Origin: Escherichia coli
GTDB taxonomy: Bacteria; Pseudomonadota; Gammaproteobacteria; Enterobacterales; Enterobacteriaceae
Assembly: GCF_003334815.1 (NCBI RefSeq)
Contig: NZ_QOWO01000119.1
Length of the DNA: 724 nucleotides
Direction: 5' to 3' (one strand)
Part shown: positions 1 through 724 of the stretch, in pieces
Layout of the letters: every line of letters begins with the position of its first letter
Position numbering within the stretch: the stretch's first letter is position 1
Program-made: the position numbers and the translations under genes
The notes under the pieces: model-generated
Told to the model about the DNA's origin: nothing
Database searches by the model: none
The model's input: only the letters and a program-made list of their open reading frames with translations

Positions 1-724
1 GTAAGTCACTGTGTGGATTATCATAACGGTAGCGGGTGATATCGCCGTCAGGGGCAGTTTCCTGAATCAGACGGCCCAATTCATCATATTCCCGGCGCAA
101 TTCCAGCCCGTCAGGCCCGGTGGCTGACGTTAACTGGTTGTGGTGGTTATAGTAAAACGCCGATGCCCTGCCATCCGGCGTGGTTATGCGCGTGATGAGG
201 CCCGTCACCACATCCGGGCTGTACTCTGTTGTCCTGCCTGCGGCATCCGTCTGTGCCCTGAGCCTGCCCACGGCGTCAAACTGACTCTGCGTGACGCTGC
301 CGTCCGCGTGTTCCTTTTTCACCACCCGCTTCAGCCCGGCTTCGCCCTGCGTGTGCAGCACTTCACGGCGGTCCAGGCTGTCGGTGATGGTGATGCGGTC
401 CTTCTCATACTGATACGTGTAGCTTAAGCCTGCCGGGTTTAGCTGTTCTGTCACCCGCCCGTCGCTGTCGTAACGGTAACGGATTTCCGGCCGGCCCGTG
501 TGACGGTGCGCCACCATCCGGCCCCGGTATTTATCATCGTAAGTAAAGCTGCGCACCTGTTTGCCACTACGGTCATACACCACCGCCAGTTCGCCGCGTG
601 GCGTCCAGCCATAGCGCACCAGCGGCGCGGCAGGTAAATTCTCCGGGTATTCCGGGTCGTGCGTCAGCCACACGGCAGACAGACGGATGCCGTTGTCCCG
701 GCCATATTCGGTGTAACCCGGCAG
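1..724 (-). CDS. Rhs-family / YD-repeat polymorphic-toxin core protein, internal fragment (partial at both ends; enterobacterial RhsA-E-like, paralog not assignable)
   Basis: Reverse-complement frame (codons at + 724-722 ... 4-2; + position 1 is the first base of the next codon) is open for all 241 codons with no stop. Translation: LPGYTEYGRDNGIRLSAVWLTHDPEYPENLPAAPLVRYGWTPRGELAVVYDRSGKQVRSFTYDDKYRGRMVAHRHTGRPEIRYRYDSDGRVTEQLNPAGLSYTYQYEKDRITITDSLDRREVLHTQGEAGLKRVVKKEHADGSVTQSQFDAVGRLRAQTDAAGRTTEYSPDVVTGLITRITTPDGRASAFYYNHHNQLTSATGPDGLELRREYDELGRLIQETAPDGDITRYRYDNPHSDL. It contains recurring YD-repeat signatures (xRYxYDxxGRxxxE/Q) at roughly regular intervals and is rich in R/Y/D/G/T, as expected for Rhs cores. 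Third codon positions are G/C-biased (about 21 of the first 30 codons). The family assignment rests on motif recognition and recollection of E. coli Rhs core sequence, not on a database search. Confidence 0.92.
   Translation of the reverse strand, partial: MPGYTEYGRDNGIRLSAVWLTHDPEYPENLPAAPLVRYGWTPRGELAVVYDRSGKQVRSFTYDDKYRGRMVAHRHTGRPEIRYRYDSDGRVTEQLNPAGLSYTYQYEKDRITITDSLDRREVLHTQGEAGLKRVVKKEHADGSVTQSQFDAVGRLRAQTDAAGRTTEYSPDVVTGLITRITTPDGRASAFYYNHHNQLTSATGPDGLELRREYDELGRLIQETAPDGDITRYRYDNPHSDL

Follow-up and report, generated by a model that had tools for sequence, protein, structure and literature searches.

An rhs core gene fragment

The window, by which we mean the whole stretch of 724 nucleotides analysed here, is an internal fragment of an rhs core open reading frame of the RhsA/B/C subfamily; 724 bases are too few to separate the copies from one another. 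A single reading frame is free of stop codons, that of the minus strand starting at base 724, which yields 241 codons, and the other five contain 6 to 15 stops each. The 241-residue translation matches positions 285-525 of the 1261-position RHS_core profile (NCBIfam NF041261) with E = 2.7e-138 and 462.8 bits; the curated cut-off of this profile, 2000 bits, is meant for full-length proteins and is out of reach for a fragment of this length. Four stretches of YD repeats are detected in the same protein (TIGR01643, YD_repeat_2x; E = 1.1e-20, 73.3 bits against a cut-off of 15.8). Furthermore, the window is identical to K-12 rhsA at 723 of 724 nucleotides, and its 241 residues are identical to residues 277-517 of RhsA. 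These matches agree with an earlier note on this DNA, made from the letters alone, which had taken the window to be part of an Rhs core.

Full-length genes that are 99.9% identical to the window are annotated as RhsA, RhsB, RhsC or "RHS element core protein". Matches to the RhsA/B/C core occur in 3,885 of 5,426 complete E. coli genomes, with a median of three copies per matching genome, nearly all of them chromosomal. The best match in these 5,426 genomes is 723/724, and none of them carries an exact 724/724 copy. The one synonymous difference from K-12 rhsA, at position 401 (position 324 of the reverse complement), is a natural polymorphism that occurs in some rhsC alleles: a 71-base query centred on the variant has perfect matches in 36 complete E. 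coli genomes, most of them at rhsC. The coordinates of the features are collected in Table 1.

Table 1. Features of the 724-base window, in window coordinates.
Feature	Position	Strand	Basis
rhs core ORF fragment (RhsA/B/C subfamily)	1..724	-	sole stop-free frame, NF041261 match; open at both window ends
Best-scoring YD-repeat stretch, one of four	221..328	-	residues 133-168 of the window protein, TIGR01643; coordinates converted from the minus-strand frame
Sole difference from K-12 rhsA	401..401	-	Lys codon 108 of the window frame, AAG vs AAA in K-12, synonymous
Local G+C dip, 51%	1..100	-	100-base sliding profile; rest of window 56-66%

The short open reading frames of the plus strand (up to 95 amino acids) were rejected as genes, being antisense shadows of the minus-strand gene, and every plus-strand frame contains at least 6 stops. 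The window also holds a 19-base direct repeat of 79% identity (161-179 and 504-522) and a perfect 14-base inverted repeat (241-254 and 679-692, with 424 bases between the arms), both of which most likely reflect the repetitive coding sequence of the YD repeats or arose by chance. An Rfam scan and a repeat search of the window returned no RNA family or repeat array that would account for its composition.

The position of the window within a complete gene can be read from K-12 rhsA, which occupies 11173-15306 of its locus (L001). The equivalent of the window is codons 277-517 (L001 12001-12724). Counted from the window, the start codon is 828 bases away on the right, and on the left the core ends after 2,189 bases and the stop codon follows at 2,582. 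The rhs gene of strain AMSCJX02 has a 4-codon indel upstream of the window-equivalent part.

An N-terminal, PAAR-like delivery domain and a linkage to the type VI secretion system would be expected of an Rhs element core protein. Among solved structures, that of Tse5 from P. aeruginosa (8cp6), an Rhs effector, is closest to the window protein, matched over residues 10-238 with E = 1.3e-38, and the other solved matches are likewise shells of Rhs effectors of the type VI system. The window protein has its YD-repeat shell family in common with Tse5, the Salmonella bongori Rhs core (8qjd) and Tse15, all of them distant in sequence. In the solved Rhs proteins the shell encloses a C-terminal toxin, and the core to which the window belongs would encode a shell of this kind. 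K-12 itself is not known to have a working type VI system.

Base composition of the window and its host

The window contains 437 G+C in 724 bases, or 60.4%. The earlier note had called it G+C-rich, correctly, on a count of 436 (60.2%), which was short by one base; its tally of about 70% G/C at third codon positions is matched by a GC3 of 70.5% in the minus-strand frame, with GC1 at 63.5% and GC2 at 46.9%. In a 100-base sliding profile the G+C content ranges from 51% (bases 1-100) to 66%. A local dip is also seen at the corresponding part of other cores, at 55% in K-12 rhsA (L001 12551-12850) and 52.7% in Escherichia albertii (L010 10551-10850), and is conserved between the two species.

The host is considerably poorer in G+C. 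The E. coli K-12 genome has 50.78% G+C (PMC3032704, Table 1), and DNA flanking Rhs elements has 51-55%, with 51.4% outside the K-12 rhsA element. Whole E. coli cores reach 61.6-61.7%, in line with the value of about 60-62% for Rhs cores in a host of about 51% from which the earlier note had argued. That note had also considered an enterobacterial host of about 50-52% G+C, conceding that a host near 60% would make the window unremarkable. The idea that the genome itself is about 60% G+C and the window ordinary has practically nothing left to recommend it: the window is 99.9% identical to DNA on E. coli chromosomes, whose G+C content and flanks are those just given, and we found no support on the other side apart from a few matches on contigs binned to other phyla, which are short and 98-100% identical to E. 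coli DNA.

As a background sample, four 50-kb regions of E. coli K-12 (200 kb in total) were used. Windows of 724 bases in this sample have a mean G+C content of 49.6% (sd 5.5) with the 99th percentile at 60.4%, and 1.1% of them reach 60.4%. Among 134 open reading frames of the sample, GC3 averages 53.2% (sd 9.3), and 70.5% is reached by 1.5% of them and by 2.2% of stretches of 241 codons. The composition of the window is atypical for its host, as had been predicted, and falls at about the 99th percentile of the sample. It is rare in K-12 rather than unique, since the fec operon is equally G+C-rich. This operon (L005 5461-12488), which is flanked by insertion sequences, has 58-61% G+C and a GC3 of up to 71%, matching the richness of the Rhs core.

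Sources of the G+C excess

One simple way to explain a G+C-rich window would be through its protein, with the amino acids of the YD repeats (Gly, Arg, Asp, Pro, Thr, Ala) alone dictating the composition. GC1 and GC2 are indeed above background (63.5% and 46.9%, compared with 57.8% and 40.9%). When the 241 residues were re-encoded 5,000 times with the codon usage of the E. coli background, overall G+C came to 54.3%, so that the same protein written in ordinary codons still exceeds the 50.9% of background open reading frames. The GC3 of the re-encoded sequences, however, averaged 51.6% (+/- 3.1) and never exceeded 62.7%, and the observed 70.5% lies at z = 6.1. Amino-acid composition accounts for about 3.4 of the 9.5 points by which the window exceeds background open reading frames, or about one third, and synonymous codons ending in G or C account for about 6, or about two thirds. 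Amino-acid composition is thereby refuted as the sole cause, and we regard that explanation as very improbable; the excess combines the amino-acid composition of the repeats, acting at the first two codon positions, with a strong preference for G/C-ending synonymous codons.

The preference is plain at silent sites. Four-fold degenerate sites have a G+C fraction of 0.80 in the core, compared with 0.60 in background open reading frames and 0.19 in the tip. The share of CGG among arginine codons is 30% in the core against 10% in the background, that of GTG among valine codons 72% against 35%, and that of CAG among glutamine codons 95% against 67%. The breakdown into one third amino acids and two thirds synonymous codons is a modest but useful outcome of the analysis.

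The junction between core and tip

The gene lies on the minus strand, and its 3' end, together with any fall in G+C at the end of the core, is therefore to be sought leftward of the window. We measured the junction on homologous loci (L001, L006, L007 and L010), comprising E. coli homologues 99.9% identical to the window and the E. albertii homologue, and not on the window's own locus. A PxxxxDPxGL motif has been described as the core boundary (PMC3150448). In the E. coli loci this motif is at residue 1238, and so it is in E. albertii when counted from the Met start (residue 1257 of the E. albertii open frame). In K-12 rhsA the core ends with PVTNTDPLGL at residues 1238-1247.

The earlier note had predicted a sharp fall in G+C at this junction, to be looked for in sliding G+C and GC3 profiles of the extended locus. 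Such profiles across the homologous loci fall abruptly at the 3' end of the core, from 60-62% G+C in the core to 36-41% in the tip after the motif at rhsA, rhsB, rhsC and the E. albertii gene. For K-12 rhsA the values are 61.6% G+C and 72.1% GC3 in the core, and 40.2% and 28.2% in the 393-base tip. The rhsB gene of strain 300709 has 61.7% in its core and 36.8% in its tip, rhsC of strain M217 has 61.6% and 41.1%, and the E. albertii gene 60.1% and 36%; the rhs of Trabulsiella odontotermitis goes from 59.0% to 41-44%. The steepest contrast between adjacent 200-base stretches at the K-12 locus falls at L001 14855-14862, shortly before the codons of the motif (14884-14913). Downstream of K-12 rhsA lie yibA (33.7%), orphan core fragments and yibG (32.3%), and this stretch averages 38% G+C. 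The orphan core fragments stand out as secondary G+C peaks of about 60% (L001 16151-16600).

The fall in G+C some 2.2 kb left of the window would thus arise because the gene is a composite, in which a conserved core is joined at PxxxxDPxGL to an A+T-rich toxin tip followed by an immunity gene. Such an architecture agrees with the C-terminal displacement model (Jackson et al. 2009, PMC2935791), which treats tips as separate modules subject to lateral exchange. The G+C richness of these genes in a host of about 51% G+C is already known, with reports going back to the 1990s, and so is the contrast between core and tip in the Rhs elements of E. coli: a G+C-rich core with an A+T-rich core extension was described by Hill's group, and the contrast is a practical means of finding the limits of orphan tips (PMC2935791). 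The same contrast is found in a clade II gene of a different, more G+C-rich host: SMA1610 of Serratia marcescens Db11 has 67.7% G+C in its core and 46.4% in its tip, with a low-G+C trough downstream over orphan tips (PMC2935791). Closest to the window are RhsA, RhsB and RhsC of K-12 (RhsA-B-C-F subfamily; clade I of Jackson et al. 2009). The analysis carries little weight as a discovery, and its outcomes are modest, the firm identification of the window being one of them.

Age and inheritance of the core

The unusual composition of Rhs cores has classically been read as a sign of horizontal origin. The earlier note cited this reading accurately; a recent import, however, does not fit what is found in a sister species. 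In E. albertii an rhs gene of the same core/tip architecture occupies the same kdp-ybfA site as rhsC in E. coli. The two loci align as a single 11.9-kb block of 91.8% identity (L010 1058-12913 with L007 1-11913) that takes in kdpD, kdpA, ybfA and rhsC. Within the block the core is 91.6-92.4% identical and kdpA-D 90.9-94.4%. The E. albertii gene differs from its E. coli counterpart in a shorter tip (138 nt) and is 90.6% identical to the window at the nucleotide level, with a slightly lower GC3 (70.2%); the core keeps a GC3 of 70-72% in both species. The least conserved segment of the alignment is the spacer between ybfA and rhs, which is A+T-rich (35.5% G+C) and 83% identical.

A core that sits at the same site in both species and has diverged as its kdp neighbours have must predate the split between E. 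coli and E. albertii. Among the marks of a recent genomic island, the core displays atypical G+C content and codon usage; it displays neither absence from the sister site nor a divergence lower than that of its flanks. The core has accordingly been passed down at the rhsC site from the time of the split or earlier, keeping a silent-site composition of its own.

An overall reading can be given a probability of about 0.93: the window belongs to a conserved E. coli rhs core with the 60% G+C that is standard for such cores, forming a composite with an A+T-rich tip, the core being a long-term resident. The competing classical account, in which the core was acquired relatively recently from a G+C-rich donor and its composition is a fading relic, can appeal to the atypical G+C content and codon usage, to the patchy distribution of the core among complete genomes noted above, and to the ISAs1/H-repeat and IS1 genes that adjoin rhsB and rhsC elements. 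It could also draw on the direction of change among E. coli alleles. With E. albertii as outgroup, polymorphisms in four E. coli cores were polarised into 52 GC-to-AT and 32 AT-to-GC changes, as a fading relic would predict. The counts are small, however, and the same procedure applied to the kdp flank gave 75 and 47, a ratio of 1.6 in core and flank alike, so that the excess is no greater than in ordinary host genes. Corrected for the G+C content of the core, the kdp control leads one to expect a ratio of about 2.0, from which the 1.6 of the core is, with these small counts, statistically indistinguishable, and the counts favour neither decay nor upkeep of the composition. The shared site and the roughly 92% identity of core and kdp genes alike, which place the core before the split, make a recent acquisition unlikely. 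Consistent with this assessment, Jackson et al. 2009 concluded that the Rhs family is ancient in enterobacteria (PMC2935791).

More distant relatives point in the same direction. A scan of 100,044 species genomes returned cores from E. albertii, Citrobacter amalonaticus and Trabulsiella, whose hosts have 50-55% G+C, along with short contigs. The Citrobacter amalonaticus and Trabulsiella cores are 65-72% identical in protein, and 86-93% of the memory of strong or weak (G/C or A/T) state at four-fold sites shared with E. coli has been lost (7-14% is left). Despite such near-randomised sites, four-fold G+C is 0.74-0.84 in these cores. This is hard to reconcile with a fading relic. Under a rough two-state model, conditioned on conserved codons and assuming stationarity, silent sites drifting toward the host equilibrium of 0.60 would require an ancestral core of more than 100% G+C, and the cores would thus have diverged under a regime that favours G+C. 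By this rough reasoning, the regime could be either a G+C-rich donor background that preceded separate transfers or a gene-specific force acting inside enterobacteria. The former counts against the overall reading, in that the deep divergence between clades could have taken place in G+C-rich donors before the cores were separately transferred. Taken as a whole, these patterns argue against recent import and suggest a core composition that is old and stable. Atypical composition should therefore be treated with caution, as it is no evidence of recent transfer in a core that is syntenic in E. albertii and stable at silent sites across deep divergence. What can be carried forward is a silent-site composition that is old, stable and distinct from that of the host.

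Possible maintenance of the G+C-rich silent sites

The identity of the gene, its figures, the junction and the synteny are direct observations; why the silent sites stay rich in G+C is something we infer from these patterns. One candidate is active maintenance inside enterobacteria, either by GC-biased gene conversion among core copies or by selection on codons or mRNA. Within E. coli, the cores of rhsA, rhsB and rhsC share 98-99% identity, compared with 92% for the positional orthologue in E. albertii; such similarity fits recent copying or gene conversion among the copies, and conversion that is still going on would be one form of it. Four-fold G+C is also stable between deeply diverged cores whose hosts have 50-55% G+C, as would be expected if a force held it up. 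The Serratia core, too, exceeds its host in G+C, by about 8 points. On the other side, every relative found comes from a host within that range of 50-55% G+C, and no paper linking Rhs to biased gene conversion turned up in the library searched. Maintenance of this sort within enterobacteria seems to us quite possible, at somewhat less than an even chance.

The sequence of events that we prefer would begin with ancestry in a G+C-rich background, after which the composition would have been maintained, GC-biased gene conversion between near-identical core copies being one example of how. We put forward tentatively, and with rather more doubt, the further proposal that the G+C-rich silent sites are not a foreign leftover at all and instead represent a composition actively held above that of the host, with GC-biased gene conversion among copies again as an example of how this might be done. 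If active maintenance were true, Rhs cores would offer a clean system, provided by nature, in which to test biased gene conversion in bacteria.

Two minor observations concern the relatives in the scan. Several short contigs with non-enterobacterial labels carry enterobacterial Rhs core DNA, among them a contig of an "Oscillospiraceae MAG" (L009, 1-2726) that is 98.6% identical to E. coli rhsB and a 553-base contig of "Rheinheimera sp. A13L" (L022, 1-553) that is 100% identical to K-12 rhsA. L013, L020 and L021 are also among these matches, and those labelled Akkermansia and Collinsella are about 70% identical. Such contigs are probably contaminant or wrongly binned. In Citrobacter amalonaticus AUH_CA_2023_1 there are three rhs copies (L011 9158-11662, L012 9239-11593 and L023 9254-11593) whose frames stop at 780-835 residues, compared with about 1,250 for a full-length core; these short frames may be pseudogenes or reflect frameshifts in the assembly.
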